Below, in pieces: positions 3,666 through 27,680 of a stretch of 34,611 nucleotides of DNA; the first letter of the stretch is position 1, and each line of letters begins with the position of its first letter. The stretch is from Candidatus Micrarchaeota archaeon (GTDB taxonomy: Archaea > Micrarchaeota > Micrarchaeia > Anstonellales > Bilamarchaeaceae), in assembly GCA_964479815.1 (NCBI GenBank), contig CAYZNP010000001.1, positions 1-34,611 of the forward strand, read 5' to 3'. The notes beneath the pieces were generated by a model. It was not told the DNA's origin, did no database searches, and saw nothing but the letters and a program-made list of their open reading frames with translations. The translations under genes and the position numbers were made by a program.

Positions 3666-3669
3666 TGCC

Positions 3670-5609: not shown

Positions 5610-7446
5610 GCGTGATGAATGCCTGGTTCGTGTATTGCTGCACCACCGTGAGCCTGCCATCGCTGCCCAACCCGTTGAGCTTGGCGTTTATCTGGTCTGC
5701 GGTGAACGCCTTCAGGCAGCTCTGGTCGATGACAGCGTATTGGTAGCCGTATTTCTTGAGGAACGCATAGTTGCCGTCCATGCTGTCGGTGATGGACCGG
5801 TTTTTGTAATCGCGCACTTCCTTAATCCATGCATAGCCTGCCTTGTCCATGCCGTCTGCGAACTGCTCGCCCATACAGAAGCCGAATATAGGCGTGTTCG
5901 CTGGCAGGCCTTTGAGGGCGGTGTAGCCTGATATCTGCTCCTCAGACACCCATTTGGCGCCAGGCGGCCATTGCCACGTCTCTACGACGCCCTTGGGATA
6001 CGCCGACGTGAACAGCAGCGCAGCCACTATGAGCGCCTTGGCAATCAGTTCCATGCCCTTCCTGTTCTTCTCTACGTACTCAAACACCTTCACCGCGCCG
6101 TATCCGGCGAGGATGGCTACTGGTATCGCAAGGAATACCCAGAAGCGGTGCGGGACGAGCTTGATTGGCAGCAGGTTGCCTTCAGTGCCAACCAGGCCGT
6201 AGGCAAGCCACAGCAGCATGATGGCTGCCGTGTCCCTATTCTCCTGGGAACGCAGCGCGTATATGGCCGCAATAACGCCGATAACCAGCAGCAGGGCCAT
6301 CGCCGGCCCGAAGCCGACCGGCTGGTCTATCTTTGACGCGAACGGCGCGTCGATGAAGTCGCTTATGCCGTAAACGAGCCCGCCGCCGGTATCCCCCTGC
6401 ACGTCAGTGAGCAATTTTGCGCTCAGGCTGTTCTGCGCGAACACCTTGTCCACAGGATACATGGCGAACATCGGGCCCCAGAAAAGCGCGATTGAGATGA
6501 GAAGGCCTGCGCCGAACGCGATTGCCGGGGGCCTGAGCTTCGCGAAGCTTAGCGTCCGCGATGCCGCAAGGTCAGACAATGCAAGCGCGGCGATATACGC
6601 GACCATCAGCCCTCCGAACATGGCTCCGGTTGAGGGCTGCGTCATGAATACGGAGGCGATGGCAAGGGCGGCGAGCGCCCCAAACGCCTTCTTCTGGCTG
6701 TCAGCCGCCTTTGAAAACCTCTCAATGAAGTACAGGGCAGGGAACACGAGCATAACCGCGAGCGTCTGGGCCCAGATGAAATGGCTCATGAAGCATGGCA
6801 GCACCGCGAGCGCTAACGCCGCCCAGAGGGCCGTGCGGCTGCCAAGCCTCTCCTTCGCCCAGCAGAAGAACAGCGGTATGGCAAGGCTGACCAGCAGGGC
6901 ATTGAAGAACTTAAGTACGAGCTGCATGGACGAGCTGTCGACCTGGAAGAGCACGCCCATGAGCACGTCGTAGAACGGCGTGTAGGGCGCGAGGTAGTGC
7001 AGGGGCAGGTCAGTAGGCTGGACGTAGCTGCCGAACAGCGATACGTAATGCGTGGCGGCTGCGTGCTCCCACGGGTCGTCGTCCTCAAGCCAGGGGTAAG
7101 AGAATGCGCCGCTGGCGTAAACGTAGAGATGGACTAGGAAGATGAGGCAGACAAGCTTCCATTCCAGGCCCAGCACCGGCATCCTCAGGCCGTATTTGAT
7201 GCCCGCTTTGCTGTCTTTCCAATAGGCAGCGCCAAGAAGGGCAGCGGCGATGGCAAGGTATGCAACCCAATTCGCCTGGCCGATGAAGCCAAGCACCATG
7301 GCCGCCATCACGAAAACGATGATGCCTGTCGCCAGCCAGAGGAAGGCTTTCGTACAGTCATCCTCCTCCTCAACACCCAGGAGCCGCCATGCGGCGAAAC
7401 CAATGGCAAGCATCACTGCCAGAAAATACGCAAGCAGAACTATCAT
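5596..7446 (-). CDS. GT-C-fold integral membrane glycosyltransferase (PMT/ArnT/STT3-like) with a C-terminal soluble domain
   Basis: About 13 hydrophobic segments, an acidic first-loop motif YPWLEDDDPWEHA, and a roughly 150-aa non-hydrophobic C-terminus. No WWDYG motif was seen. The ATG at 7446 (MIVLLAYFL) is preferred over the track start at 7590, which would overlap the divergent gene at 7516. Confidence 0.6.
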   Translation of the reverse strand: MIVLLAYFLAVMLAIGFAAWRLLGVEEEDDCTKAFLWLATGIIVFVMAAMVLGFIGQANWVAYLAIAAALLGAAYWKDSKAGIKYGLRMPVLGLEWKLVCLIFLVHLYVYASGAFSYPWLEDDDPWEHAAATHYVSLFGSYVQPTDLPLHYLAPYTPFYDVLMGVLFQVDSSSMQLVLKFFNALLVSLAIPLFFCWAKERLGSRTALWAALALAVLPCFMSHFIWAQTLAVMLVFPALYFIERFSKAADSQKKAFGALAALAIASVFMTQPSTGAMFGGLMVAYIAALALSDLAASRTLSFAKLRPPAIAFGAGLLISIALFWGPMFAMYPVDKVFAQNSLSAKLLTDVQGDTGGGLVYGISDFIDAPFASKIDQPVGFGPAMALLLVIGVIAAIYALRSQENRDTAAIMLLWLAYGLVGTEGNLLPIKLVPHRFWVFLAIPVAILAGYGAVKVFEYVEKNRKGMELIAKALIVAALLFTSAYPKGVVETWQWPPGAKWVSEEQISGYTALKGLPANTPIFGFCMGEQFADGMDKAGYAWIKEVRDYKNRSITDSMDGNYAFLKKYGYQYAVIDQSCLKAFTADQINAKLNGLGSDGRLTVVQQYTNQAFITLKVN

Positions 7447-7482
7447 GGCAACCTGCAACTCCCGGCAGTTCTTCGTCTTCAG

Positions 7483-7492
7483 TATATTTAAA
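7483..7492 (+). promoter_or_regulatory. TATA box (TATATTTAAA) about 28 nt upstream of the ATG at 7516; possibly also serves the divergent GT-C gene
   Basis: Only A/T-rich element in the 69-nt divergent spacer. The spacing fits a leaderless transcript for 7516. The minus-strand gene would then have a 5' UTR of about 14 nt with AGGT upstream of its ATG. Confidence 0.5.
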
Positions 7493-7515
7493 CATAGCAC
7501 AGCAATTGTTTCCTG

Positions 7516-8439
7516 ATGAGAATCGCGGTTACGGGCGGAGCCGGTTTCATAGGCTCCCACCTCGTGGATGAGCTTATTGCCGGAGAGCACCGCAGCGGCA
7601 TCGAAGTGGTCGTCATCGATGACCTCTCCTGCGGAAAGAAGGAGAACGTCAGCCCGAAGGCCAGGCTGGTGCGCAAGGATATCAGGCAGGATATTTCAAC
7701 CGAGCTCCGTGGCGTGGATGCAATGTTCCATTTCGCCGCTGACCCGGATGTGCGCTCGAGCGCGGCCAACCCGGCCAAGAGCTTCGAGCAGAATGTCGCA
7801 GGCACGTTCGCCGTGCTGGAATCATGCAGGAAGTCGGACGTGAAGCACGTCATCTTCGCCTCCACCTCCACGGTCTACGGTGAGGCGGAAATGATCCCCA
7901 CCCCAGAGACGTGCCCCTGCGTCCCCATAAGCAACTACGGCGCATCCAAGCTTGCCTGCGAAGCATATCTCTCTGCCTACTCAGGCTCCTACGGCATCAA
8001 GGGCACCTCGCTCCGCTTCGCCAACATCTTCGGCGAAAGGAGCACGCATGGCGTCATGCTGGACTTCTACCGCAAGCTCAGGGCAAACCAGGGAGAGATG
8101 GAAATCCTGGGCGACGGCAAGCAGGATAAGTCCTACCTGCACGTTTCCGACTGCGTATCTGCAACGCTTACCGCATGGAAAAAACAGAAGGCGGCATATG
8201 ATGTCTTCAATGTGGGCAGCAAGGGCAAGGTTAGCGTCGATGAAATCGCAGGGCTGATGTGCCGCATTATGAAGGTAAAGCCGAAGTTCTCATACACCGG
8301 CACGCCCCGCGGCTGGGCAGGCGACGTCCGCGTGATGCTTCTCAGCACGGAAAAGATAGGGCGGCTGGGCTGGAAGGAGCAGGTTTCGTTTGAAGAAGGC
8401 GTGAAAAAATACTTGGCGTGGTTGGAGAGGAATGGCTAG
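7516..8439 (+). CDS. NAD-dependent nucleotide-sugar epimerase/dehydratase (extended SDR), paralogue B
   Basis: VTGGAGFIGSH, YGASKLACE, and ILGDGKQDKSYLHVSDCV. Clearly paralogous to 4653..5609. Confidence 0.8.
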   Translation: MRIAVTGGAGFIGSHLVDELIAGEHRSGIEVVVIDDLSCGKKENVSPKARLVRKDIRQDISTELRGVDAMFHFAADPDVRSSAANPAKSFEQNVAGTFAVLESCRKSDVKHVIFASTSTVYGEAEMIPTPETCPCVPISNYGASKLACEAYLSAYSGSYGIKGTSLRFANIFGERSTHGVMLDFYRKLRANQGEMEILGDGKQDKSYLHVSDCVSATLTAWKKQKAAYDVFNVGSKGKVSVDEIAGLMCRIMKVKPKFSYTGTPRGWAGDVRVMLLSTEKIGRLGWKEQVSFEEGVKKYLAWLERNG

Positions 8440-14709: not shown

Positions 14710-15873
14710 ATGACAGAGGGACCGGAACGGTGCAGTGTTTACACCGCGTCCACCCCGCTCTTGGTCCTACTCGCCACGGGCACTGCCTCCTTCCAGGACA
14801 AGAACCGGATTAAATACCTCATCCTTCCCTTCGACTTCCGCGGTGCGGACCGATTCAGGGACGCGCTCGAGCGGTGGAAGGGCAATCCATTCTCCCGCAT
14901 ACTGCTCCTCGAAGGCCAATACGGCAAGGTTCAGGTGCGTTTCGGGGCGATACGGCGGGCCGTCGCCAGCAGGAAGAACATAGGCGCGCTGAGGGCTTTT
15001 TTCGCAAGCGAGCCCACGCTTGCGCAGGGCTTCGATGCCTTCATATCCGCGGTGGAAAAACCCGAGGGGCAGTTCATAGGCCACGTGAACCGGCAGCGGG
15101 GAGGCACCAACTATCATCTGGGCGGCATGGGCGCCTACCTGTCCGATTACCTTGTCGAGTCCCGCTGGCGGACACTGCTGAAGAAAGCTATCTACGGCCC
15201 CTGGTATTCCCATGCGCCTTCCTACCCTGACTACGCGTATATAGACAAGCTCGTCATCATACGCCCGGACCTGGTTGCGAAAGGCGCGCTGGGCAAGGGC
15301 GCGGCCGGAAAGGAGGTGGTCCCGCTCCCGCAGGACCTGTTCGTCCGCCTTGCTGGTGCAGGGCTCGCCGCCGAAATCCTGAAGGAATGGGGTATCGGCC
15401 GGCTTCCAGAATGGGACGTGTTCATAATTGCGCCGCTGTCCGAGATGAATGCGCAGCTGGGGGGCGTGGAAAGGCTGAAGGCCCTTTTCGGCCGGCTGCT
15501 TGACGCGCTTGGAAAAAGCGGCAGGCGGACGCTGTTCAAATACCACCCGAGAGAGGAGCTCGGCGACTTTCTGGGCGCTGAGGGGAGGCCGGGCGTGAGC
15601 ATGGCGCCAGCGGCCATACCCTCCGAGATACTGTGCATGTGCAGCAGGTCCGGCAGGGGGAAGACGGCGGTGAGCGACGTCTCAACAGCGCTGTTCCTTT
15701 TCAAGCTCATGAATCCTGAAGCCGTGGCAATATCCATAATGGGCGTCCTCGGTTACCAGTACGCCGAAACCGAGGAAGTCTTCCTCAGCTGCGGCATACT
15801 GATACCAAAGACCATGGAAGAGCTGGAAGCCCTTGCCGTGCGGCAGGAAAAGCGGCCCGCTAGAGCCCGTTGA
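14710..15873 (+). CDS. Uncharacterised 387-aa protein; candidate CMP-sugar-dependent (sialyltransferase-like) glycosyltransferase
   Basis: No classical GT2/GT4 motifs. The N-terminus VYTASTPLLVLLATG, the segment FIIAPLSE, then LFKYHPREE and AIPSEIL recall the HP-motif region shared by bacterial sialyl/Kdo transferases (GT38/GT52/GT80 type). This is recognition by eye only. Confidence 0.35.
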   Translation: MTEGPERCSVYTASTPLLVLLATGTASFQDKNRIKYLILPFDFRGADRFRDALERWKGNPFSRILLLEGQYGKVQVRFGAIRRAVASRKNIGALRAFFASEPTLAQGFDAFISAVEKPEGQFIGHVNRQRGGTNYHLGGMGAYLSDYLVESRWRTLLKKAIYGPWYSHAPSYPDYAYIDKLVIIRPDLVAKGALGKGAAGKEVVPLPQDLFVRLAGAGLAAEILKEWGIGRLPEWDVFIIAPLSEMNAQLGGVERLKALFGRLLDALGKSGRRTLFKYHPREELGDFLGAEGRPGVSMAPAAIPSEILCMCSRSGRGKTAVSDVSTALFLFKLMNPEAVAISIMGVLGYQYAETEEVFLSCGILIPKTMEELEALAVRQEKRPARAR

Positions 15874-16499: not shown

Positions 16500-16570
16500 G
16501 GATAGGGATACACAGCAACGAAAGGTGAGCCATCACCATCTGGTGGCATTTTTCGTGAGAGGTAGTCTTC

Positions 16571-17434
16571 TTGGATGACTGGACATTCAAATCCATAACC
16601 ATACTGCCCGGCACGGACAAGGCCGGCAAGCCTGAGGGATTTGACAGGCTGACGCTGAAGCCAGGCGACGTGCTGTCCATAGTTGGGCCGACCGGCTGCG
16701 GCAAGACGACGTTCATAAACGACCTGGAGCTGTTCGCAAGGGGAGACACCATAACCCGGCGTCACGTGCTTGTCAACGATGCCGTGCCGAGCCGCGATTT
16801 CACCGATGACGCATCTAGGAACCCGATTGCGCTGATAACGCAGAACACCAAATGCCTGGCAGACCTCAGCGTGCACGCTTTCCTCACCGTGCACGCAAGG
16901 GCCCGCAAGATAACCAGCCCGGCGGTCGTCACCGAAACCGTGGGCCTGGCGAACAAATTCACCGGCGAGCCCATAGACCCGGAGAGCAAGACGACCACCC
17001 TTTCAGGAGGGCAGACGCGGGCCATGCTCATCGCCGACGCCATAGTAATAGGCAACGCACCGGTCATCCTCCTGGACGAGATAGAGAATGCCGGCATATT
17101 CAAGGACGAGGCCCTGGCGGAGATAAAGCGCCACAAGAAGGCAGTCATCTTCGTCACCCACGACCCGTCCGTCTCGCTGCTTTCTGACCGGCGCTTGGTC
17201 ATGAAGAACGGCGCAGTGGTCAAGATAATTGAGTTCAGCGCGGACGAGGACACGGCCCGTGACCGGGCGCTGTTCTACGACCGGAAGATCGCCGAGCTGC
17301 GCGAGCACGTCCGGCAGGGCAAGCTGGTCTCCAAGCATCTGCTGGCTGAGCTCGACCGGAAATACCGTGAGACCGACATGGGCTCCGCAGAGCCGGCAAA
17401 AGCCGGCAAAAACGAGGAAGAGGCAGGGATATGA
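16571..17434 (+). CDS. Stand-alone ABC-type ATPase (single nucleotide-binding domain, no cognate permease in the window)
   Basis: Walker A GPTGCGKTT, Q-loop ITQN, signature LSGGQ, Walker B ILLDEIE, H-loop FVTHD, and a charged coiled C-terminal tail. The start is TTG, with no in-frame ATG before the Walker A. It is preceded by a GAGAGGT Shine-Dalgarno at 7-nt spacing. Confidence 0.75.
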   Translation: MDDWTFKSITILPGTDKAGKPEGFDRLTLKPGDVLSIVGPTGCGKTTFINDLELFARGDTITRRHVLVNDAVPSRDFTDDASRNPIALITQNTKCLADLSVHAFLTVHARARKITSPAVVTETVGLANKFTGEPIDPESKTTTLSGGQTRAMLIADAIVIGNAPVILLDEIENAGIFKDEALAEIKRHKKAVIFVTHDPSVSLLSDRRLVMKNGAVVKIIEFSADEDTARDRALFYDRKIAELREHVRQGKLVSKHLLAELDRKYRETDMGSAEPAKAGKNEEEAGI

Positions 17435-17508
17435 GTACGGCGCCAAAACGATTGTTTCATTATTCAATATATATTGTTTCAGCTCCATGAAACACAAGAG
17501 GTGAAGAT

Positions 17509-18219
17509 ATGAAACTGATAATAATAGCAGGACCGTCTTCGTCAGGCAAGACCGCCGTGGCAAAGCAGGTCATAAGGAAGCTGCAGAAGGATGATAAAAT
17601 CTCCTACCTGAAGATAGACGTCGTCAGGGCGTTCGAGGACGAGGAGATACGCAAGGAATTCGGGATTCCGGCCAAGAAAATATATTCCGGGGACCTGTGC
17701 CCTGACCATGCCGGCGTGATGGTGATCGGCGATGCCATAGACTGGGCCGAGAAGAACGGCTCCACCCTGCTTCTCATCGAAAGCGCAGGCCTGTGCCTCC
17801 GCTGCTCCCCCTACCTGACGCAGGGGCTCGGCATAGTGACCCTCAGCGCAGAAAGCGGCATGAACACGCCGCTGAAGATGGGCGCGATGCTCGGGCTCGC
17901 GGACCTGGCGGTGGTCACGAAGATTGACCTGGTTTCCCAGGCAGAGCGCGAGGTTTTCAGGGAAAAGATAAAGGAGGTCCGGGGCGACATGAAGATAATA
18001 GAGACCAACGCGCTCCAGGGCACTGCCATAGAGAGGCTTGCCGATGCGGTCCGTGAATCAAAGGATATAGACCCCAAGAACCTCTATCTCAAGGGCACGC
18101 CCCCGCTGGGAACGTGCACGCTGTGCGTGGGCATCAAGAAGATTGGATGGAAAAACCACTTCGGCGTCATACGCAAGCTGGAAGGCGGCGTGGCCGATTA
18201 CATGTACCGCGGGGAATGA
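17509..18219 (+). CDS. G3E-family (HypB/UreG-like) P-loop GTPase metallochaperone with a C-terminal CxxC extension
   Basis: Walker A GPSSSGKT. SGDLCPDHAGVM resembles the HypB GxCHLDAHM metal site. LLLIESAGLCLRCSP resembles ENVGNLVCP. VVTKIDL is the NKxD equivalent. There is an extra roughly 45-aa tail with GTCTLCVG. A strong Shine-Dalgarno, GAGGTGA, lies 5 nt upstream. Confidence 0.7.
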   Translation: MKLIIIAGPSSSGKTAVAKQVIRKLQKDDKISYLKIDVVRAFEDEEIRKEFGIPAKKIYSGDLCPDHAGVMVIGDAIDWAEKNGSTLLLIESAGLCLRCSPYLTQGLGIVTLSAESGMNTPLKMGAMLGLADLAVVTKIDLVSQAEREVFREKIKEVRGDMKIIETNALQGTAIERLADAVRESKDIDPKNLYLKGTPPLGTCTLCVGIKKIGWKNHFGVIRKLEGGVADYMYRGE

Positions 18220-18230
18220 GGTGCATCTGC

Positions 18231-18887
18231 ATGACTACGAAAATAAACTGGAAGCCGCCGGGAAAGAACTGCGGCATGTGCGGCGCGAAGAGCTGCGCTG
18301 AGCTGGTAAGGCTGGTCCAGGAAGGGAAGAAGGACCCGGGAGAGTGCCCGTTCTACAGCTCGGATCAGGGCGGCATATGCGAAGTGAAGCATGACTACGG
18401 CACCAAGGACGTCCTGGGCGCGGAGTTCGATTTCGTGCTCGAGTCGCTGCCCGGCGAGAAGTCATCGCGCAAGATTGTGCTGCCTTTCCGCGGAGACCTC
18501 GTGGAGAAGATGGGCATAAAGAAGGGCGATATAGTGCTCGGCAGGCCCATGGGTCAGGGTTGCCCGCTCCAGCATGTGATTGAGGTGATTGACGCGGATC
18601 CGATCAGCGGCGTCATAACCGGCTGGGTGGTTGGGCCGAAGTTCGCGCGCGACAGGGCCGCAGCCAGCATCAAGGACGTGAAGGCCTACCATGTCATTGC
18701 CTTCGAGGGCATCGCCCGCAAGGTGAAGCGCGACCCCATATTCGGCCTGCGGCAGCGCTTCCTGCCAGGCTACTGCATGATGGGCCTGGGCCACACCGCA
18801 GTGGTCAACACGGTCCTCAAGCGCGACGACGGGAAAATATTCGTGCACCTGGAGGACATCCGGGTGGGAGTGGCATGCAGCCCCTGA
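18231..18887 (+). CDS. Fe-S protein: N-terminal RnfB/CFeSP-type [4Fe-4S] motif plus a roughly 175-aa domain of unknown function
   Basis: PGKNCGMCGAKSCAELVRLVQEGKKDPGECP gives exactly Cx2Cx4Cx16C. I do not recognise the rest of the protein. GAGGTG lies 7 nt upstream of the ATG at 18231. An alternative ATG at 18216 overlaps the upstream stop (ATGA). The track start at 18114 was rejected. Confidence 0.65.
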   Translation: MTTKINWKPPGKNCGMCGAKSCAELVRLVQEGKKDPGECPFYSSDQGGICEVKHDYGTKDVLGAEFDFVLESLPGEKSSRKIVLPFRGDLVEKMGIKKGDIVLGRPMGQGCPLQHVIEVIDADPISGVITGWVVGPKFARDRAAASIKDVKAYHVIAFEGIARKVKRDPIFGLRQRFLPGYCMMGLGHTAVVNTVLKRDDGKIFVHLEDIRVGVACSP

Positions 18888-18925
18888 AGCAGGATGCGGC
18901 CAGCTCGATGTGAAAGGTGTGTCAT

Positions 18926-19963
18926 ATGGCAAAAGTGAAGCTCGGGAAACGATTTGTGGGCGATGGAGAGCCCTGCTACGTGGTATTCGAATGCGGGGCT
19001 ACTTTCAACGGCCTGGAGGGCGCTAAGAAGCTCGTCAAGGCCGCGGCAGATGCTGGCGCGGACGCCATAAAGTTCCAGGTGCTGGACCCGGACCGCCTCA
19101 TGGGCGACCACAGCCTCACAATATCCTATACCACAGCCACAGGCCCTAAGACCGGCAACCTCTACGACATCCTTAAGAAGCGCGTGCTCACGAAGGCGCA
19201 GTGGAAGGAGCTTAAGAAGCATGCGGACCAGCAGGGCATAACCTTCTGCGCCACAGCCTCCTTCCCCGACGAGGTGGACTTCCTGGTGGAAATCGGCTCT
19301 GCGGCCATCAAGATAAACGCCGGCGACGTCAACCACTACTATCTCATAGATTACGCATCGAAAAAGAAGGTGCCCATGATGCTCGACGGCAGGGCGAAGT
19401 ACGACGAGCTGGAAAAGGCAGTGGAGATATGCGAGAAGAACGGCAACAGGAACATAGTGATAATGCACTGCCCGTCCGGCTACCCTGCCCGCAACGACGG
19501 CGTGAATCTAAGCACGCTTTCCTCGCTTAAGGAGATATACGACTACCCCATAGGCTTTTCCGACCATTCGCGGGAGAAACTCATGAACTACCCAGCCATG
19601 GTGATGGGCGCGGACATCCTGGAGAAGACACTCACGCTCAACAAGAACGCCGAGGGCATCGAGCACCTCATGTCCCTGGAGCCCAAGGAGGCGAAGGAGT
19701 TCGTGGCTGAGGTCCGTGCCATAGAGGAGGCCATCGGCTCGCCCCGCATCATGTTCAGCAAGAAGGTCAATGACTCGGCCAGGCGGAGCATCGCCGCGTC
19801 AAAAGACATCGCGGAGGGCGAGGAAATAACGCTCAAATCCATAGAGTTCAGGCGCCCGGGCAACGCCGGCGTCTCCTGCGCGGACTATGAGGCCGTATGT
19901 GGCAGGAAGGCGGCGAGGCACATCAGGAAGGACGAGTTCATCACCTGGGAGATGCTGGCCTGA
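18926..19963 (+). CDS. Divergent NeuB-family nonulosonic acid synthase (TIM barrel plus C-terminal SAF/antifreeze-like domain)
   Basis: CYVVFECGATFNG...AGADAIKFQ, IMHCPSGYP, IGFSDHS, LEKTLTLNK...EHLMSLEP, and a C-terminal RRSIAASKDIAEGEEIT (SAF). The canonical E-x-G-x-NH-x-G motif is replaced by ECGATFNG. The ATG at 18926 follows AAAGGTG. The track start at 18917 is GTG. Confidence 0.75.
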   Translation: MAKVKLGKRFVGDGEPCYVVFECGATFNGLEGAKKLVKAAADAGADAIKFQVLDPDRLMGDHSLTISYTTATGPKTGNLYDILKKRVLTKAQWKELKKHADQQGITFCATASFPDEVDFLVEIGSAAIKINAGDVNHYYLIDYASKKKVPMMLDGRAKYDELEKAVEICEKNGNRNIVIMHCPSGYPARNDGVNLSTLSSLKEIYDYPIGFSDHSREKLMNYPAMVMGADILEKTLTLNKNAEGIEHLMSLEPKEAKEFVAEVRAIEEAIGSPRIMFSKKVNDSARRSIAASKDIAEGEEITLKSIEFRRPGNAGVSCADYEAVCGRKAARHIRKDEFITWEMLA

Positions 19964-20829
19964 TGCTCTGGGCGCTCCTCTGCCTGCTGGCCGCAGTTGC
20001 GTCCACCGGCGCCATCGTCGTGAGCAAGCGGCTTGCGCAGGAGTGCGACCTGTTCCATGTGGCTGCCGCGCAGTTCTTTTTCACCGCGCTGTTCCTCGTG
20101 CCTGCCGCGGCCCTTATGCCAGCGCCGCCCGAAGGCTATGCGCTTCCGTTGCCCGCGGCCGGGGCGATTTTGCTGGCCGCGCTCCTGAACGTGTCCTCGG
20201 TTTACATATATCTCCGGGCGATAAAGTCCGGCAGCATATCTATCCTGGTGCCGCTCAGGAACACCACCCCGCTTTTCGTGGCGTTTCTAGCCATCGTGCT
20301 CCTCTCCGAGCAGGTGACTGCGACTGTGATCGGCGCGGCGCTGCTCATAGTTGCCGGCGCTGCGCTGCTCAACCAGGCTAGGGAGAAAGGCAAGGCAGCG
20401 CTCGCCCGCGGCGCCGGCGCCGCGCTACTGGTCGCGCTCATGGCCGCATTCGTGTTCATCATCGTGAAATACATAACAACCATCTCCGGCCCGGTACCAT
20501 ACCTTGTATTTTCTTCCCTCGCGGCCGCGGTCATCTCAGGTGCATTCCTGGCGCTCGCACCTGGCCTGCAGCCTTTCGTCCATGCCGCCAGGCGCCATGG
20601 CCGCGCGTTCCTGCTGCTGGGCATCCTTGCCGCAGCCGCCTCGCTTGCCACGGTGTACGCCATCTCCCTGGAAAAGGCGTCGGTGGTGTCGACCTTCCTG
20701 CGGGTGGAGCTGCTCTTCGCAGTGGCAGCCGGCGCTCTGTTTTTTAAGGAAGAAGTGGGGATATCAAAGATCGCAGGGGCCCTCCTAGTGCTTGCGGGGC
20801 TCGTGCTGGTAATCATGAGAGGCGGCTGA
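19963..20829 (+). CDS. EamA/DMT-superfamily transporter (about 10 TM)
   Basis: Two hydrophobic EamA-like repeats, ending in the typical AGALLVLAGLVLV tail. The ATG at 19963 overlaps the upstream stop (ATGA). The track start at 19897 was rejected. Confidence 0.7.
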   Translation: MLWALLCLLAAVASTGAIVVSKRLAQECDLFHVAAAQFFFTALFLVPAAALMPAPPEGYALPLPAAGAILLAALLNVSSVYIYLRAIKSGSISILVPLRNTTPLFVAFLAIVLLSEQVTATVIGAALLIVAGAALLNQAREKGKAALARGAGAALLVALMAAFVFIIVKYITTISGPVPYLVFSSLAAAVISGAFLALAPGLQPFVHAARRHGRAFLLLGILAAAASLATVYAISLEKASVVSTFLRVELLFAVAAGALFFKEEVGISKIAGALLVLAGLVLVIMRGG

Positions 20830-21855
20830 ATGGAAATGCCAAAGGAGCTCAGGGACGCGGTAGAGGCCGAATACCACTCGCTCGGCAGCATAGGGAGCTG
20901 GGCGGACGCAGGCGGCCACGCCATAAACAGCAAGAATTACGTGCTCACTTTCGCAGGTGGCAAAAAGCTGCTCTGCAAATACCTGGAAGGGGCGGACGAG
21001 GGCCGCCTCAGCTCACTGCTCGCCATCCTGGAGTTCTGCAGGAAAAAGGGCGCGAAGGTGCCCGCCCTGGCCCCATCGGATTCCGGAAGGGAAATCTGCA
21101 CGCACGGCCAGGGGCTCTTCTACCTCCGTGCCTTCCATGAGGGCGGATACTTCAGCGGCGGCATGGGAGAACTGGAGGATTTCGCCTCGTCGCTGGCAAA
21201 GCTCCACCACATACTCAAAGCATGCACGCTTGAATATCCGCTTTCTGCCCCGCAAAAAACCCACCTGCGCAAGTACGTGCACCCCAAGCCCGAGGAACTG
21301 GAGCGCATCAGGTCAGCGGCAGGGAGTAGCCATGCGGACGTGGACCGGCTTTTCCTCGCCAATTTCGATTTCCTGAAGTCAGAGTACGCTTCGGATGCCG
21401 GGCGGGAGCGCGGCATTGACCGGAGCAGGATACGCGAGCAATACGTGCACGGGGACCTCCATCCCCTCAACGTCATCTTCAATGGCGGCAGGACCGAGGC
21501 CATACTGGATTTCGACGGCCTTTCACACGGGGCACTGGCGTATGACGTCTCCTTCGCGTGCTTCCGCTTTGCCATGTACGGCGGCAAGGACAGCATGGCC
21601 GACATGAAAACCGCTGCGGCGCGTGCAAGGGTGTTCCTGGGGGCCTACGAGGCTAAAAATCCCCTGGACAAGGAGGAGCGCAGGCTTATCGGCCATTATT
21701 TCATCCACGAGTGCCTCAACCGCATAAGTTATATTCTTAGGGATAAAACAGATACTGGCGCGTGGAATTCCGATCTACGCAGGCAGTTGGATTATCTTAA
21801 CATGGCCAAGGCCATGAAAATAGAAAGACTGCTGGGGACTGGTGACAATGGCTAA
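20830..21855 (+). CDS. APH/choline-kinase-fold phosphotransferase (small-molecule or sugar kinase)
   Basis: Catalytic loop HGDLHPLNVIF (HxDxxxxN) followed by ILDFDG (DFD metal-binding). 341 aa. The start abuts the upstream stop. Confidence 0.7.
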   Translation: MEMPKELRDAVEAEYHSLGSIGSWADAGGHAINSKNYVLTFAGGKKLLCKYLEGADEGRLSSLLAILEFCRKKGAKVPALAPSDSGREICTHGQGLFYLRAFHEGGYFSGGMGELEDFASSLAKLHHILKACTLEYPLSAPQKTHLRKYVHPKPEELERIRSAAGSSHADVDRLFLANFDFLKSEYASDAGRERGIDRSRIREQYVHGDLHPLNVIFNGGRTEAILDFDGLSHGALAYDVSFACFRFAMYGGKDSMADMKTAAARARVFLGAYEAKNPLDKEERRLIGHYFIHECLNRISYILRDKTDTGAWNSDLRRQLDYLNMAKAMKIERLLGTGDNG

Positions 21856-22549
21856 GCGCATGGATAATCTCTGCATAATCCCGGCCAGGGGAGGCTCCAA
21901 GAGGATTCCGCGGAAGAATGTTGCGGAACTCTGCGGCAAGCCCCTCATCGCCTACACCATAGAGGCAGCCCTGCGCTCAGGCCTGTTCGGCGCAGTGGTG
22001 GTATCCACGGACGACGCTGAGATAGCGTCGGTTTCCCGCAGGTACGGCGCCGAAGTGATGGACCGCAGCAGCAGGCTCAGCGGCGACAGGGCCACGGTCA
22101 TAGATGTCTGCCTTGATGTCGTCGCCAGGTGCAAGAAGCAGGGCAGGCGCTTCAGGCGCCTGTGCATCCTCCTCCCAACCAGCCCGCTGCGTGATGCTGA
22201 CGACCTGCGCGCCGCGTTCAGGAAGTTCAGCAAAAGCAGCGCCAACGCGCTCATGGCAGTGACCACCTACGCGATTCCGCCGTTCTGGGCGCTCAAGGAG
22301 GAGAAGGGCTTCCTTGTTCCCTATTTCGGCCAGGACTGCATGGTGAGGAGCCAGGACCTGCCGGAGGTTTTCGTTGACAATGGCGCCATATACCTGTTCG
22401 ACATGGGCGCTTTCATGAAGGAGAAGCGCTTCTACTGCTCCAAGCTCGTGGCGTTCAGGATGCCCAGGGAGAAATCCGTGGACGTTGACACGCCTGCAGA
22501 CCTGAGCATGGCGGGGTTTTTCCTAAGGCAGAGGAGGCGCGGAAAATGA
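21848..22549 (+). CDS. CMP-nonulosonic acid synthetase (acylneuraminate cytidylyltransferase family)
   Basis: CIIPARGGSKRIPRKN, GKPLIAYTIEAA, LLPTSPLR, and NGAIY are classical NeuA/PseF/LegF motifs. The start is ambiguous: GTG 21842, ATG 21848 or ATG 21860. Confidence 0.8.
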   Translation: MAKRMDNLCIIPARGGSKRIPRKNVAELCGKPLIAYTIEAALRSGLFGAVVVSTDDAEIASVSRRYGAEVMDRSSRLSGDRATVIDVCLDVVARCKKQGRRFRRLCILLPTSPLRDADDLRAAFRKFSKSSANALMAVTTYAIPPFWALKEEKGFLVPYFGQDCMVRSQDLPEVFVDNGAIYLFDMGAFMKEKRFYCSKLVAFRMPREKSVDVDTPADLSMAGFFLRQRRRGK

Positions 22550-23556
22550 TCCTCGGCGTACTCGGATGCGGCTCCATAGGAAAGAGGCACATCGCCAACC
22601 TGCTCGCACTCGGCCTCCAGGTCGTGGCATCCGACCCCTCGGTCCAGGCGCTGGATGAAGTCAGAAAGGCACACGGTATCAGGACGTTCAGCAGCGCGGG
22701 GGCCATGCTCAAGGAAGCCAGCCCGGATGCGGTGCTGGTGTGCACGCCCACCCACCTCCATGCGGCCCATGCGGCGCTGGCGCTTGAGAACGGCTGCCAC
22801 GTATTCATAGAAAAGCCGGTTTCCGACAGGCTGGACGGCCTTGGCAAGCTTGAGGCCCTGGCCAGGAAAAAACGCAGGGTGGCGTTCGTGGCCTGCAACA
22901 TGAGGTTCCACCCTTCGGTCATGCACATGAAGGCAAGGCTGGAAAGCGGCGCCCTCGGAAAGATATACTCCGCCAGGCTGGAATTCGGCAATTACCTCCC
23001 TGACTGGCGGCCCGGAACGGACTACTCCAAGACCTACAGCGCGCACAGGGCACAGGGAGGCGGCATAATCCTGGACGCAGTGCACGAATTCGACTACCTT
23101 TCGTGGCTGCTGGGCGAGCCTTCGGACATCTTCTGCTTCGCAGGACGGCTGGGCGGCCTCAAGATAGACGTGGAGGACGCGGCCGGAGTGCTGGTGCGTA
23201 TGAAGAGCGGTGCAATCGCCGAAGCCCACCTTGACTACCTGCAGAGGAGCAAGAGGCGCTCGTGCCAGTTCATAGGCTCTAAAGGCACGATAATCTGGGA
23301 GAGCACAGGAAAAAACCCGGAGAAGTCAGTCGTCCGGGAATACCTTTCCGCGACCAAGCGCTGGAAGGTGCGTAAGGAGTCCCTCGGCGCCAAAGAGGCC
23401 AATGACATCTACGTGCGGGAGGTCAGGCATTTCATGGACTGCGTGCGCGGCACGGCAAAGCCGGTCTCCACCATAGCTGCCGGAAGGCTTGCGCTGGAGA
23501 TGGCGCTTGCGGCAAGGAAATCAGCGGAAAGCGGGAAGAAGATAGCATTCAAATGA
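22546..23556 (+). CDS. Gfo/Idh/MocA-family NAD(P)-dependent oxidoreductase
   Basis: N-terminal Rossmann LGVLGCGSIGKRH, VCTPTHLH, and the ENGCHVFIEKP (EKP) motif. ATGA overlap with the upstream gene, and a GAGGAGG Shine-Dalgarno. Confidence 0.8.
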   Translation: MILGVLGCGSIGKRHIANLLALGLQVVASDPSVQALDEVRKAHGIRTFSSAGAMLKEASPDAVLVCTPTHLHAAHAALALENGCHVFIEKPVSDRLDGLGKLEALARKKRRVAFVACNMRFHPSVMHMKARLESGALGKIYSARLEFGNYLPDWRPGTDYSKTYSAHRAQGGGIILDAVHEFDYLSWLLGEPSDIFCFAGRLGGLKIDVEDAAGVLVRMKSGAIAEAHLDYLQRSKRRSCQFIGSKGTIIWESTGKNPEKSVVREYLSATKRWKVRKESLGAKEANDIYVREVRHFMDCVRGTAKPVSTIAAGRLALEMALAARKSAESGKKIAFK

Positions 23557-23571
23557 AGATGAGGAGATGGC

Positions 23572-24870
23572 ATGAAGCTGAACACGGACTTTTCACGGAG
23601 CACTGAACTGCTGAAGAAGGCAAAGGAGCTCATACCCACGGCGTCGCAGACCTACAGCAAAAGCTACATGTATTTCTGCGAGGGCGCCGCGCCTGCGTTC
23701 ATGGAACGGGGGAATGGTGCAAGGGTGTGGGACGTGGACGGCAACGAGTACGTGGATTTCGTGCTCGGCCTCGGTGCCATAACCGTCGGCTACAACAACC
23801 CCACCGTCAACGCGGCAATCAAGCGCCAGCTTGCGAAGGGAATCTCATTCTCCCAGCCCAGTCCAGTGGAGGTGGAACTGGCCCTGAAGCTCACCCAGAT
23901 AATCCCCTGTGCCCAGATGGTCAAGCTCGTGAAGAACGGCTCGGACGCGACTTCGGCTGCAGTGAAGCTGGCACGGGCACACACCGGCCGGGACATGGTG
24001 CTCTGCTCCGGCTACCACGGCACAGGAGACTGGTACATCGGCACAACCACCAACAGCCGCGGCGTCCCTGAGGGCGTGAAGAAATTCACGGCAACATTCA
24101 AGTACAACGACATCGAGGGCCTCAAGGCCGTGTTCGCCAAATACCCCGGCCAGGTCGCGGCAGTGATACTCGAGCCCATGCAGGGGGACGGCCCCGCGCC
24201 CGGCTACCTGGAGGCGCTCAGGCAGCTCACCCACGAGAACGGCGCGCTCCTCATATTCGACGAGGTCGTTTCAGGCTTCAGGATGGGCATCGGCGGCGCG
24301 CAGGGCCATTTCAAGGTGACGCCGGACCTGTCCGCTTTCGGGAAAGGCATGGGGAACGGGATGTCCATATCAGCGCTCGTGGGCCGCAGGGACGTGATGA
24401 AGCTCATAGACGAGGGCGTGTTCATATCAAGCACTTTCGGGGGCGAGGCGCTCGCAATAGCAGCTTCGCTTGCCGCCATAGGGCTCCTTGAGAAGCCTGA
24501 AAGCTTCAGGCACATCTGGGCTCTGGGCGAACGCTGGACCGCTGGCGCCCGCAGGCTGGTCGCGGAGAAGGGGCTGGCCGGGGCGGCAAAGGTCACCGGC
24601 GCGCCGCCGCACTGCGGCATGGAGTTCTCTGACAGCGGAAATCTGTCAAAGGCAGACCTGCTGTCCGTCTACCAGCAGGCTGTCATAGCCCGGGGCATAC
24701 TCACCACCGGCATAAACAATTTCTGCCTCGCGCACACAGCCGCGGACATCGACCTCTACCTGGAGGCCGCGTCAGCGGCCCTGGACGACGTGAAAAAGGC
24801 TCTTGACAAGGGAAGCACTGAAGGCATCCTGCGCGGCCAGAAAATCAGGCCGGTATTCAAGAGGCACTAG
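23572..24870 (+). CDS. Class-III PLP-dependent aminotransferase (glutamate-1-semialdehyde aminomutase-like)
   Basis: VKNGSDATSAAVKLAR, LIFDEVVSGFRMG, and AFGKGMGNGMSISA (PLP-lysine region). GAGGAG Shine-Dalgarno. 432 aa. Confidence 0.8.
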   Translation: MKLNTDFSRSTELLKKAKELIPTASQTYSKSYMYFCEGAAPAFMERGNGARVWDVDGNEYVDFVLGLGAITVGYNNPTVNAAIKRQLAKGISFSQPSPVEVELALKLTQIIPCAQMVKLVKNGSDATSAAVKLARAHTGRDMVLCSGYHGTGDWYIGTTTNSRGVPEGVKKFTATFKYNDIEGLKAVFAKYPGQVAAVILEPMQGDGPAPGYLEALRQLTHENGALLIFDEVVSGFRMGIGGAQGHFKVTPDLSAFGKGMGNGMSISALVGRRDVMKLIDEGVFISSTFGGEALAIAASLAAIGLLEKPESFRHIWALGERWTAGARRLVAEKGLAGAAKVTGAPPHCGMEFSDSGNLSKADLLSVYQQAVIARGILTTGINNFCLAHTAADIDLYLEAASAALDDVKKALDKGSTEGILRGQKIRPVFKRH

Positions 24871-25677
24871 TCAGATCTTGTATCTTGGCCTGCGTGGCAC
24901 CTGCACCGTGTAGAATTCGGGCTCGCGGACGTTGATTCCCGCGCTTTTCATGAAGTTCTTCGCCTTGGTCGTGCTCTGCTCTGAATAATGGAAGATGTTG
25001 GCCGCGGACACGGCATCGGCCTTCCCTTCCGCGATGCCATCCACCAGATGCTGCCAGTCGCCCACGCCACCGGACGCTATCACCGGTATGTCGACCGCTT
25101 CAGACACACTCCTCACAAGCCCAAGGTCGTAGCCCTTCCGCATGCCGTCGTTGTCTATGGAAGTGAGGAATATCTCTCCTGCGCCGCGCTTCTCCGCCTC
25201 CTTTGCCCAGGCCGGAGCCGAAAGGCCGGTGGCCGTGCTGCCGCGGTCTATGAAAACCTCATGCCCGCCCCCGGCGTTCCGCTTGGCGTCGATGGACACC
25301 ACGATGCACTGGTTGCCGAAAACCTGCGCCGCCTCCCTGATGAATTCCGGCCGCCGGACAGCCTCGGTGTTGATGGCCACCTTGTCGGCACCCTCGCTGA
25401 GCAGGGTCCTGATGTCAGCGACGCTCCTCACCCACCCGCCCACGGTCAGGGGCACGAAGCACCTGCTGGACAGTTCCCTGAGGTCCTCGTGGAACTTCCC
25501 CCTGCTCCCCTCCTCACGGGTGACGTTCAGGAGCACTATCTCGTCTATAGCCCAGGTGTTGAAGAAATCCACTGCGGTGTAGGCGTTTCCCACGGAATTG
25601 ACGTGCCTGAAGCCCATGCTCTGGACGAGCATCCCGTCCCGCCACAGGAGGCACGCGATGAGGCGGTGCTTAAGCAT
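24871..25677 (-). CDS. HisF-like cyclase subunit (WbuZ-type) of the N-acetyl-sugar amidotransferase system
   Basis: RLIACLLWRDGMLVQS, the DEIVLLNV motif, PLTVGGWVRS, and VIASGGVG are HisF-fold motifs. Co-located with HisH-like and WbuX-like genes, not with his genes. Confidence 0.8.
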   Translation of the reverse strand: MLKHRLIACLLWRDGMLVQSMGFRHVNSVGNAYTAVDFFNTWAIDEIVLLNVTREEGSRGKFHEDLRELSSRCFVPLTVGGWVRSVADIRTLLSEGADKVAINTEAVRRPEFIREAAQVFGNQCIVVSIDAKRNAGGGHEVFIDRGSTATGLSAPAWAKEAEKRGAGEIFLTSIDNDGMRKGYDLGLVRSVSEAVDIPVIASGGVGDWQHLVDGIAEGKADAVSAANIFHYSEQSTTKAKNFMKSAGINVREPEFYTVQVPRRPRYKI

Positions 25678-26347
25678 CCGTTCCGCCCCCCGCCGGCGTT
25701 TTGCCCGCCTGCCTGCTCTTTTTGGCGTAATCGATGAAATTCTTCAGCAGCCTCAGCCCTGCCTTCTGGCTTTTCTCAGGATGGAACTGCACGCCGAATA
25801 TGTTGCCCTTGCGGATGCTCGCGACCACATCCTCGCCATGCCAGCACGTTGATGAGACGGTGCCTTTCTCGCTTTCAGCCGGCTCAAGGAAATAGCTGTG
25901 GACGAAATAGAATACCGGCCCCGTGCCCAGCCCCCCGAAAAGCACCGGGTCTGCCCGCTCCCGGACCGCCACGTCGTTCCAGCCCATGTGCGGGACCTTT
26001 ATGCGCTGGTCCTTCGGCTGGATTTTCCTCACCACCCCTTTCACCCAGCCAAAGCCAGCGTGCTCGCCGTGCTCCAGGCCGCGCTCCGCGAGGAACTGCA
26101 TGCCCAGGCAGATTCCGAGGTAGGGCTTTTTTTTGCCGATGACTTCGGCACGAAGGGTCTCGAGGAAGCCGGCCTTCTTCAGGTTCGCCATGCCGTCCCC
26201 GAAAGCGCCCACGCCCGGCACGACTATCGCATCCGCAGCGGCGAGTGCGGACGGCTCTTTCACTATGGCCACCTGCTCGCCCAGGGCCTCGAACGCGTTG
26301 GCTATGGAGCGCAGATTTCCCATACCGTAATCAACTATGGCAATCAT
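25670..26347 (-). CDS. HisH-like class-I glutamine amidotransferase subunit (WbuY-type)
   Basis: IAIVDYGMGNLRSI, GICLGMQ (nucleophile Cys), and FGVQFHPEKS. The ATG at 26347 with an AGGAG Shine-Dalgarno is preferred. The track start at 26449 would overlap the upstream gene by 41 nt. Confidence 0.8.
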   Translation of the reverse strand: MIAIVDYGMGNLRSIANAFEALGEQVAIVKEPSALAAADAIVVPGVGAFGDGMANLKKAGFLETLRAEVIGKKKPYLGICLGMQFLAERGLEHGEHAGFGWVKGVVRKIQPKDQRIKVPHMGWNDVAVRERADPVLFGGLGTGPVFYFVHSYFLEPAESEKGTVSSTCWHGEDVVASIRKGNIFGVQFHPEKSQKAGLRLLKNFIDYAKKSRQAGKTPAGGGTDA

Positions 26348-26408
26348 ACCGTTTGCTCCTGCATTGCCGGGCGGCCGCCTGCACGCCGGCTCATCTTCGT
26401 TCTCCTGG

Positions 26409-27680
26409 CTATAGCCAGATGTACTCGCTGTCTTCGGGGACGTGGTCATCCCTTGAGTATTTGGGCTGGTTGTGCGACCTCAGGATGCCGCGGTCCGCGA
26501 CCTGCGGTATCCTCGCCTTCTCAACTCCAGGGTCCTTGACATGGTTCGCGACCGAGTCCAGCACCTTCCATCTGCCGTCGCGGCCCTTCTCCCATATTTT
26601 CGGGTCACGCATGGGCTCCACGCAGCTCATGAACTCCTCCTCGCTCATGCCCACGAACTTCAGGAACAGGTCAAGGTCGCTCGGGCGCACGTGGTCGTAC
26701 TTCTTCACCATCTCTATGCCCTCCTCGCGCGTCATCCTGCCGTGCCGTATGTCGTTGCTCGCGTCGTCGGTGGCCCGGCCATAGCCGAACTTCAGGTACT
26801 TCAGGTAGTCGTGCGCGCCGTTCGCGTGTATGTCGTCCAGCTTGTCGTAAAGATGGTACGTCCGCTCCCTCGACACCGCGGTTTCGAACCCGAATTTCTC
26901 TATCATCATGCGTGTCTGCGCCCTCGCATCCCAGCTGATGTAATTGGACAGGTAGATGCCGCGCACGCCGACCGCTTCTATCTCCTCGTCGCTCGGATAG
27001 TAGAACGGCGCGAGGTCCAGCTTTGTGATGCCTCCGTTGTCCGGGTCGTCGAGCACGTCGTCGGGCTCGAACCCCCGCATGCTGTGCTCCTGCCTCACCT
27101 TCTTGGAGAACTCTATCATATCATCCTGGTTGAACATGCCGACCAGCTCGGCAAAGCCGTGCTCGCCCCAGATGATGAGCGGTATCTTGTACATGACCGC
27201 GGCCTTTATCGGGAACGTCATTATGCCTGCGTGGTAGTGCCAGGTTATGTCACCGACCTTCCTGAGCATGTAGCGCGATATCTTCCTGACCGATTCGGGG
27301 TTCGATGTGAACCTGAGAAGGTCGCAGTTGAACTGCTTCAGCATGTTCGTGAGGTTCCTTATGCCCCTCTTGGTGTTGAAGCCGTGGTTGTAGGTAACGA
27401 ACAGGGGGTTGTAGCCGAGGACGTTCTTGATGAAATATGCCTGGAAGTGGCTGTCCTTGCCGCCGCTCACCGGGATTATGCAATCGTAGGGTGAGCCGTT
27501 CGCCCTGGCCTTCGCGCTGTATTCCTTCAGCAGGCCCTTGAGTATCTGCAGCCTCTCGTCCCAGTTCTGTATCTTCGGCCTGCTCTCCTGGAGCCGGCAT
27601 CCGCTGCACACCCCTTCCTCGTCGAATATGATTGTCGGCTTGGCATTTTCAGGGTAAACGCACCTGGCGCAATATCTCAT
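26409..27680 (-). CDS. N-acetyl sugar amidotransferase (WbuX/PseA/PtmG family, PP-loop ATP pyrophosphatase)
   Basis: N-terminal zinc ribbon CARC...CSGC, the PP-loop IIPVSGGKDSHFQAY, and a size of 423 aa. Gene order with the HisH/HisF-like partners is as in the WbuXYZ acetamidino modules. Confidence 0.8.
   Translation of the reverse strand: MRYCARCVYPENAKPTIIFDEEGVCSGCRLQESRPKIQNWDERLQILKGLLKEYSAKARANGSPYDCIIPVSGGKDSHFQAYFIKNVLGYNPLFVTYNHGFNTKRGIRNLTNMLKQFNCDLLRFTSNPESVRKISRYMLRKVGDITWHYHAGIMTFPIKAAVMYKIPLIIWGEHGFAELVGMFNQDDMIEFSKKVRQEHSMRGFEPDDVLDDPDNGGITKLDLAPFYYPSDEEIEAVGVRGIYLSNYISWDARAQTRMMIEKFGFETAVSRERTYHLYDKLDDIHANGAHDYLKYLKFGYGRATDDASNDIRHGRMTREEGIEMVKKYDHVRPSDLDLFLKFVGMSEEEFMSCVEPMRDPKIWEKGRDGRWKVLDSVANHVKDPGVEKARIPQVADRGILRSHNQPKYSRDDHVPEDSEYIWL

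Follow-up and report, generated by a model that had tools for sequence, protein, structure and literature searches.

A conserved module of an ABC-type ATPase, a G3E GTPase and a COG2000 iron–sulfur protein, and its association with sulfite-dependent sulfonate biosynthesis

All methane formation depends on coenzyme M (CoM), whose sulfonate group derives from sulfite. Sulfite is consumed by two non-homologous enzymes of sulfonate biosynthesis: the phosphosulfolactate synthase ComA, which uses phosphoenolpyruvate (PEP) and sulfite, and cysteate synthase, which uses phosphoserine and sulfite. How methanogens that live on sulfide come by the sulfite for CoM has been described as unclear, reverse sulfite reductase activity having only been proposed as its source (PMC6286981). 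A study from 2025, according to which MMP16 is the CoM synthase, states in the legend of its Figure 2 that genes for an ATPase, a ‘Ni2+-binding GTPase’ and a COG2000 iron–sulfur (Fe–S) protein are co-localized with the CoM genes of methanogens (PMC12068725). The passages retrieved from that study assign no function to these three genes, whose role ‘remains unknown’, and its legend sentence is the only mention of them that we found in the literature searched. Here, we describe an orthologous set of the three genes, hereafter referred to as the trio, at positions 16571–18887 of contig CAYZNP010000001.1 (assembly GCA_964479815.1). The whole contig, 34.6 kb in length, is referred to as the window, and it is the part of the genome that our analysis covers. 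The trio is one conserved, self-contained module, and its dominant partner in both domains of life is sulfite-dependent sulfonate biosynthesis. Because it usually lies beside genes for making sulfonates (CoM, sulfolactate and cysteate) out of sulfite, it may be the missing step of sulfite supply or handling.

The trio of the methanogen CoM clusters, as it appears in the retrieved passages of PMC12068725, and the trio of the window comprise the same three gene families in the same order. We compared the window proteins with members encoded directly upstream of TIGR03287, TIGR03844 and ComDE genes, and found identities of 50–58% for the ATPase, 60–70% for the GTPase and 51–57% for the Fe–S protein. 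Unlike the methanogen trio, that of the window belongs to a host that groups with bacterial members and lies in a nonulosonic-acid (NulO) operon, and CoM or sulfonate genes are not co-localized with it in the window. A preliminary description of this locus, made from the DNA alone, had suggested that the trio may be an undescribed system, which the legend sentence corrects. What can be added to that remark, as far as the retrieved passages go, is the wide bacterial distribution of the trio, its link to ComA and thus to two non-homologous sulfite-using routes, its recurrence in pseudaminic-acid operons, a 2Cys/2His/Arg signature in the Fe–S protein and the lack of a structural relative for that part of the protein. 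Neither the bacterial distribution nor the ComA and NulO contexts are mentioned in those passages.

All three genes lie on the plus strand and are preceded by Shine–Dalgarno (SD) sites. The ATPase gene (16571–17434) encodes 287 residues with a single nucleotide-binding domain (NBD) and starts with TTG, with GAGAGGT 7 nt upstream. The GTPase gene (17509–18219, 236 residues) starts with ATG, with GAGGTGA 6 nt upstream, and the Fe–S protein gene (18231–18887, 218 residues) starts with ATG, with GAGGTG 8 nt upstream, a site that overlaps the GTPase stop codon. The mechanical open reading frame (ORF) of the last gene opens at 18114; we take the ATG at 18231 as the real start because GAGGTG precedes it and all homologs agree. 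Only 38 nt beyond the Fe–S stop codon, and with an SD site of its own, lies the ATG (18926) of a gene for a divergent NeuB-like enzyme. The preliminary description was accurate on the three genes, their SD sites and the 38-nt gap, as in its other statements about the sequence.

Relatives of the Fe–S protein are encoded in 313 GTDB species representatives and 301 metagenome stretches. The family spans Methanomicrobiales, Heliobacteria, Peptococcia/Pelotomaculum, Thermincola, Dethiobacter and others, and several hundred anaerobic bacteria and archaea share the trio as a conserved unit. We fetched 167 loci around the Fe–S gene. In 165 of them it is adjoined by the GTPase gene, and in 149 the ATPase gene stands next to the latter; contig ends cut most of the remainder. 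The order ATPase, GTPase, Fe–S protein is near-universal, and the junctions measure 0–15 nt or overlap. About 150 other loci show these three genes side by side and in this order, so their arrangement in the window is not due to chance, and the earlier suggestion that they form one unit is borne out. A single lineage is rearranged, with the Fe–S gene first and an SDR gene between the Fe–S and ATPase genes.

To compare contexts, the loci were dereplicated at 80% identity of the Fe–S protein, which left 43 lineages flanked on both sides by 4 kb or more of sequence, and the synthases were sought within 8 kb. Cysteate synthase or ComA is found in 28 of the 43 lineages, and one, the window itself, has NeuB alone. 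In archaea, the gene for MMP16 (TIGR03287; 492 bits, cutoff 364) begins 0–19 nt after the Fe–S gene in 63 loci and is followed by genes for cysteate synthase (TIGR03844; 669 bits, cutoff 325) and then sulfopyruvate decarboxylase ComDE, the ComD and ComE calls also reaching their curated cutoffs. Three other archaeal loci (L007, L077 and L166) have MMP16–ComA–ComB downstream of the trio instead, and four (L149, L153, L163 and L164) have cysteate synthase immediately 3′ of it. The arrangement in Peptococcia is different again, with ComA, or ComA and ComB, directly upstream on the same strand and neither MMP16 nor ComDE; MMP16 is missing from the bacterial trio loci, and roughly half of the ComA loci lack ComB. 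When 142 ORFs flanking the trio in 26 lineages without MMP16 were tallied without bias by Pfam family, ComA came first; it is common in anaerobic Firmicutes, including Thermincolia, according to a search for ComA homologs. Sulfite consumption is the sole feature common to all of these sulfonate contexts. The preliminary description had remarked that the usual clients of G3E GTPases (hydrogenase, urease, carbon monoxide dehydrogenase and mutases) are absent from the window, and the same holds for the roughly 170 related loci sampled: neither these neighborhoods nor the Pfam tally contain hydrogenase, urease or carbon monoxide dehydrogenase genes.

The trio lies in a NulO context in three of the 43 lineages. 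In the window, the operon continues with the NeuB-like PEP-condensing enzyme (18926–19963, plus strand), which matches PF03102 with 212 bits and carries a SAF domain, although it stays below the NCBIfam cutoffs for NeuB (254 versus 400 bits) and PseI (206 versus 340 bits). The remainder of the operon (19897–24870, plus strand) was assigned with Pfam to an EamA transporter, an APH-type kinase, the cytidylyltransferase PseF, a GFO/IDH/MocA oxidoreductase and a class-III pyridoxal-phosphate enzyme that resembles glutamate-1-semialdehyde (GSA) aminomutase. PseF (TIGR03584; 213.2 bits) exceeds its cutoff of 205.7, so that NeuB-family synthase and PseF together mark this as an operon for a pseudaminic-acid-type NulO. 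The genes within 19897–24870 overlap or are separated by at most 15 nt. A consensus scan found no terminator-like site in the gap at 18887–18926, and the trio appears, from this layout, to be co-transcribed with the NeuB-like, PseF, oxidoreductase and aminotransferase genes.

The two other NulO lineages are bacterial and unrelated, and both of them also encode a sulfonate synthase. In the first (L085; GCA_964622965.1, CAZURO010000005.1, 1–11911), ComA (TIGR03849; 322 bits, cutoff 280) is encoded just upstream of the trio, with two acetyltransferase-like genes between them, in a flagellin pseudaminic-acid operon with DegT, Maf, NeuB, a PseG-like protein, an ATP-grasp ligase, a cytidylyltransferase and FliS, and without MMP16 or ComDE. 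This gene content predicts a sulfolactate-derived decoration of the nonulosonic acid; in the literature searched, we found no paper that links phosphosulfolactate synthase with pseudaminic acid. The second lineage, from UBP3/Aureabacteria-like bacteria (L051, L056, L150 and L168–L170), has the trio inside a pseudaminic-acid (Pse) operon, and the contig of a close relative (L167) ends too early to follow the operon further. In L168 (2327–20309), the Pse operon runs on into genes for cysteate synthase (459 bits, cutoff 325), ComD, ComE and a SafD-like aldehyde dehydrogenase, next to an ATP-grasp ligase; from this we predict that the sugar bears an acyl group of the sulfoacetyl or cysteate type. 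It is in these loci that the trio is rearranged by the inserted SDR gene. We considered the SDR (L051/L168) as a possible sulfite user similar to UDP-sulfoquinovose synthase and rejected this, as it resembles ordinary epimerases/dehydratases and not SQD1. In a rough neighbor-joining tree, the window branches deeply and alone among the bacterial members, and the three NulO contexts do not come out as sister groups; the association of the trio with NulO genes therefore arose more than once. The neighbors of the trio are not Ni-enzyme or transporter genes, and its adjacency to NeuB recurs outside the window; on neither count does the context refute the preliminary description.

Other genes recur around the trio. 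The Pfam tally also shows the sulfur-amino-acid families Cys_Met_Meta_PP, PALP and HTS; in the Bacillota flanks, Cys_Met_Meta_PP (three members) and homoserine O-succinyltransferase (two members) are recurrent, which suggests a wider link to sulfur assimilation. A conserved ORF of about 132 residues without a Pfam family precedes ComA(–ComB) and the trio on the same strand in L006 (4135–4533), L023 (4284–4682) and six other Peptococcia loci, and may be a further member of this operon. A conserved, divergently oriented gene for an HTH_3 (Xre-type) regulator lies just upstream of the trio in L005 (5926–6417) and in 11 other Methanomicrobiales loci, and is a candidate regulator of the trio–CoM operon.

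The Fe–S protein combines a recognizable N-terminal domain with a C-terminal domain that we could not place, as the preliminary description had reported. The former (18231–18365, residues 1–45) is of the [4Fe–4S] type and matches PF04060 over residues 10–41 with 34 bits, above the gathering score. Its cysteine pattern, C14-x2-C17-x4-C22-x16-C39, is invariant in homologs down to 29% identity and is shared with the N-terminal domain of the CFeSP large subunit and RnfB. Foldseek superposes 37 N-terminal residues on the cluster domain of CFeSP with a root-mean-square deviation of 1.4 Å and a probability of 0.96–0.97, and the N-terminus of CFeSP was the only match in a PDB sequence search with the Fe–S protein. 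The likeness to CFeSP and RnfB is confined to this module of about 40 residues: the remainder of the protein matches neither of them.

The C-terminal domain (18393–18887, residues 55–218) is predicted by AlphaFold2 to be all-beta, with a mean predicted local distance difference test score of 89.9 and a predicted template modeling score of 0.85. No Pfam family matches residues 45–218, even with the threshold relaxed to E ≤ 10, and five divergent homologs searched at the same threshold match PF04060 and nothing else. Foldseek searches of the PDB with the full-length and C-domain models gave no match at E ≤ 1e-3, the top TM-score of the C-domain being 0.27, and a search of viral structures likewise gave none at E ≤ 1e-3, its TM-scores not exceeding 0.25. 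When 1.84 billion representatives were searched exhaustively with phmmer, the C-domain had 99 relatives, of about 150–290 residues; they share one architecture, and no fusions were found among them. An ADC-like or double-psi barrel fold, suggested by the motif ‘GIKKGDIVLGRP’, is no more than an impression, which neither Pfam nor Foldseek backs. Conserved down to 29% identity are R80, R105, G-C111-P-x2-H115 and F-L-P-x2-C182-M-M-x3-H188, so that C111-x3-H115 and C182-x5-H188 may form a putative second metal site of the Cys2His2 type beside oxyanion-binding arginines.

The GTPase is a member of the G3E family of P-loop GTPases. It matches PF02492 with 44.1 bits (gathering score 20.7) and has the Walker A and ExxG motifs and the Cys/His site of that family, with TKID as a variant of the base-recognition motif NKxD; the motifs GPSSSGKT, CPDH, ESAG and TKID are present as first read. 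Invariant in 128 sequences are GPxxxGKT, C64-P-D-H67, E91-S-A-G-L-C96-x2-C99, TKxD and C203-x2-C206...H218. Its likeness to HypB and UreG, whose PDB entries it matches at E ~1e-7, lies in the PF02492 fold, Walker A, ExxG and a Cys-containing switch II, and C64-P-D-H67 sits where the CPH metal site of UreG or the CH site of HypB is found. Neither name can be given to it, however: it scores 68.2 bits against a cutoff of 121.2 for HypB (TIGR00073), with no hydrogenase context in the window or the sampled neighborhoods, and 33.9 bits against 204.2 for UreG (TIGR00101), with no urease genes seen. It differs from those proteins in that TKxD replaces NKxD, switch II holds an additional CxxC and the C-terminal tail carries CxxC...H; it is also paired with an ABC ATPase, whereas HypB and UreG are paired with HypA or UreEF. 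Bacterial and archaeal members share 60–70% identity, and the closest relative of the window protein (P0122) is 81% identical. Judged by sequence, these GTPases are a new G3E subfamily with invariant Cys/His motifs.

Single-NBD ATPases of the ATP-binding cassette (ABC) type need not belong to transporters. SufC of the SufBCD system is a soluble ABC ATPase without a permease and works in Fe–S assembly. The ATPase of the window resembles it in having a single NBD and in being paired with soluble partners rather than a membrane domain. Its partners, a G3E GTPase and a COG2000 protein, differ from those of SufC, and no specific kinship with SufC is evident, SufC being absent among the best 25 NCBIfam matches listed. 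The ATPase matches PF00005 with 53.5 bits (gathering score 25), and its Walker A, Q-loop, LSGGQ, Walker B and H-loop motifs are kept in 117 sequences, together with a family-specific motif of the helical subdomain, ANKFTGEPI, that is conserved in the orthologs. The top match in a PDB sequence search reaches just 73.9 bits. We find no evidence for membership of an ABC transporter: no NCBIfam transporter equivalog is approached, the highest score being 64.9 bits against a cutoff of 499, and Pfam scans of all large ORFs in the window reveal no permease or binding protein, which agrees with the earlier account of a complete ATPase without a transporter partner. A defense system was considered and rejected, as PADLOC returned a generic ABC match alone. 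The trio is not HypB, UreG, an ABC transporter or a CFeSP member, because the defining features of each were tested and are lacking; what distinguishes it from the characterized systems compared here is its set of partners and its unplaced C-domain. By analogy only, it would work like a G3E metallocenter-delivery system.

The reading that these data support best is a genuine possibility, though we hold it no more than tentatively: the two chaperone-type nucleoside triphosphatases (NTPases) would load a metal center on the Fe–S protein, and this protein would supply or channel sulfite to sulfonate synthases. In such a scheme, the G3E GTPase, aided by the soluble ABC-type ATPase, would load or maintain a metal center on the C-domain, whose anatomy suggests Cys111, His115, Cys182 and His188 as likely ligands, flanked by the invariant arginines. 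The N-terminal [4Fe–4S] domain would link this center to cellular electron carriers, and the loaded protein would make or channel sulfite (S(IV)) for ComA or cysteate synthase, which form the C–SO3 bond. In the window, the module would feed the sulfonate decoration of a nonulosonic-acid glycan made by the downstream operon, with a sulfonate synthase encoded outside the contig. What the data show is the conserved unit, its domains, its conserved residues and its gene contexts; from anatomy and genomic context we infer that a metal is loaded, which client receives it, and any chemistry of sulfite. A more specific version holds that the trio is a previously unrecognized NTP-dependent system in which a new-fold Fe–S metalloprotein makes sulfite anaerobically, from sulfide or other sulfur, for ComA or cysteate synthase, and this we regard as doubtful. 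The CysDN ATP sulfurylase and the Fe–S adenosine 5′-phosphosulfate (APS) reductase, a known sulfite-producing route, also combine an ATP-consuming enzyme, a GTPase and a [4Fe–4S] protein; the parallel is a functional analogy that offers a lead and no evidence. No homology was found or is claimed, and ABC ATPases hydrolyze ATP rather than transfer AMP.

Several observations weigh against a role in sulfite supply. Tblastn searches of the window gave no match to ComA, ComB, cysteate synthase, ComDE or MMP16, and since no sulfonate synthase lies on the contig, this is the main weakness of the model at this locus. Neither cysteate synthase nor ComA occurs within 8 kb in 14 of the 43 lineages. To our knowledge, no sulfite-forming enzyme resembles the Fe–S protein, and a six-electron oxidation of sulfide on a protein of 218 residues without siroheme would be unprecedented. 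Moreover, the context cannot separate the making of sulfite from its delivery or buffering, or from some other need shared by these pathways.

Other explanations were weighed against the same evidence. It seems rather unlikely that the trio matures or repairs a separate metalloenzyme of the sulfonate pathway, such as the archaeal MMP16, with the NTPases delivering Ni, Fe, Zn or a cluster and the COG2000 protein acting as scaffold, adaptor or electron donor and not as an enzyme. The tight spacing between the Fe–S gene and MMP16 in 63 archaeal loci would suit this idea, as would the SufC precedent in Fe–S assembly and the standing of G3E GTPases, to which PF02492 and the similarity to HypB and UreG tie our protein, as classic metal insertases. 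Yet MMP16 is missing from the bacterial loci, and no candidate client family is shared by all contexts; ComA and cysteate synthase are neither Fe–S nor Ni enzymes, and the COG2000 protein is itself the sole constant companion of the NTPase pair. The preliminary description had looked to the glycan genes instead, proposing a metallocenter-delivery or redox system that would assist a sugar-modifying enzyme in the downstream NulO pathway or, failing that, a self-contained system that had become operonic with glycan genes. The apparent co-transcription in the window favors the former, as does the presence of the trio inside the Pse-type operons of two other lineages, in one case with an SDR epimerase/dehydratase inserted. 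We nevertheless judge it distinctly improbable, given that the NulO context is limited to three lineages and glycan genes are entirely lacking from most trio loci, and that the inserted SDR is neither SQD1-like nor otherwise unusual. Both of the other NulO lineages carry ComA or cysteate synthase, and for that reason the presence of the trio in them needs no sugar client. The self-contained alternative comes closer, because the main partner of the trio is sulfonate biosynthesis and because the other NulO operons bring ComA or cysteate synthase with them. The earlier observation is thus confirmed, while its interpretation is partly supported: the neighborhood survey bears out the conserved unit, with sulfonate biosynthesis rather than sugar modification as the main partner.

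The trio might also be a general metal-homeostasis or Fe–S repair module of strict anaerobes, its sulfonate neighbors reflecting inherited synteny or hitch-hiking. The 14 lineages without a nearby synthase have unrelated and variable neighbors (SLH proteins, cation efflux, POR and chemotaxis), and the tree would allow the methanogen association to be a single inherited event, but the links to sulfonate genes take several separate forms (ComA–ComB upstream, MMP16–cysteate synthase–ComDE or MMP16–ComA–ComB downstream, and ComA or cysteate synthase within Pse operons) and involve two non-homologous synthases. Since ComA and cysteate synthase are normally single-copy at most, repeated chance adjacency is very unlikely, and we consider a general module unlikely as well. 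Finally, the ATPase could energize a transporter of sulfite, sulfonate or metal whose membrane parts are encoded elsewhere, with the GTPase and the Fe–S protein as cargo-handling accessories. All motifs of a transport-type NBD are present, and the nearest sequence relatives are transporter NBDs; however, no equivalog cutoff is approached, neither the window nor the loci sampled have an ABC permease or binding protein beside the trio, and strict three-gene synteny without a membrane gene in two domains of life argues for a soluble complex, which makes a transporter very improbable indeed.

The supply of sulfite by the trio would have consequences beyond this locus. The trio tracks the sulfite-consuming step in two non-homologous routes and in two domains of life, and it is therefore a concrete, testable candidate for the missing sulfite step. 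If it does make sulfite anaerobically, it would be the missing source of sulfite for methanogen CoM and would account for the sulfite that anaerobic bacteria put into sulfolactate and into sulfonated sugars of the flagella or cell surface. From the related L085 and L168-type loci, pseudaminic acids decorated with sulfonates are predicted on the flagella or surfaces of bacteria. Whatever its function, the trio brings together a new G3E subfamily, a soluble ABC ATPase and a redox protein with a domain that lacks relatives of solved structure, and there is a real chance that this NTPase-assisted metalloprotein system is categorically new.

Further features of the window concern the borders and the surroundings of the operon. 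A scan for terminator-like sites found a G+C-rich hairpin (16529–16556, plus strand), followed by ATTTTT and lying directly before the SD site of the ATPase. The intergenic region that holds it is 132 nt long, separates divergent genes and follows a minus-strand nitroreductase gene. This leader hairpin may be a putative attenuator; Rfam gave no match in the leader or anywhere else in the window. The mechanical EamA ORF, which opens at 19897, shares 67 nt (19897–19963) with the 3′ end of the NeuB-like gene, and the true start is probably a later ATG.

Pfam assignments show the window to be a glycan-biosynthesis island with two NeuB paralogs, PseF, DegT, a PseB-like protein, heptose-type genes, glycosyltransferases and methyltransferases. 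The second NeuB paralog (29730–30782, minus strand) is canonical, with a Pfam score of 315 bits, and is encoded beside DegT and the PseB-like dehydratase. On the minus strand at 24871–27680, HisF-like and HisH-like genes adjoin an ORF of 423 residues without a Pfam family, a set that presumably resembles the amidotransferases making acetamidino groups on nonulosonic acids. Two other ORFs within the island, at 5596–7590 (minus strand, 664 residues) and 14710–15873 (plus strand, 387 residues), have no match in Pfam or NCBIfam. Genes for a HAD phosphatase, a nucleotidyltransferase, a SIS isomerase, a GHMP kinase and an epimerase follow one another at 1832–5609 (plus strand), a run that looks like a nucleotide-heptose pathway.

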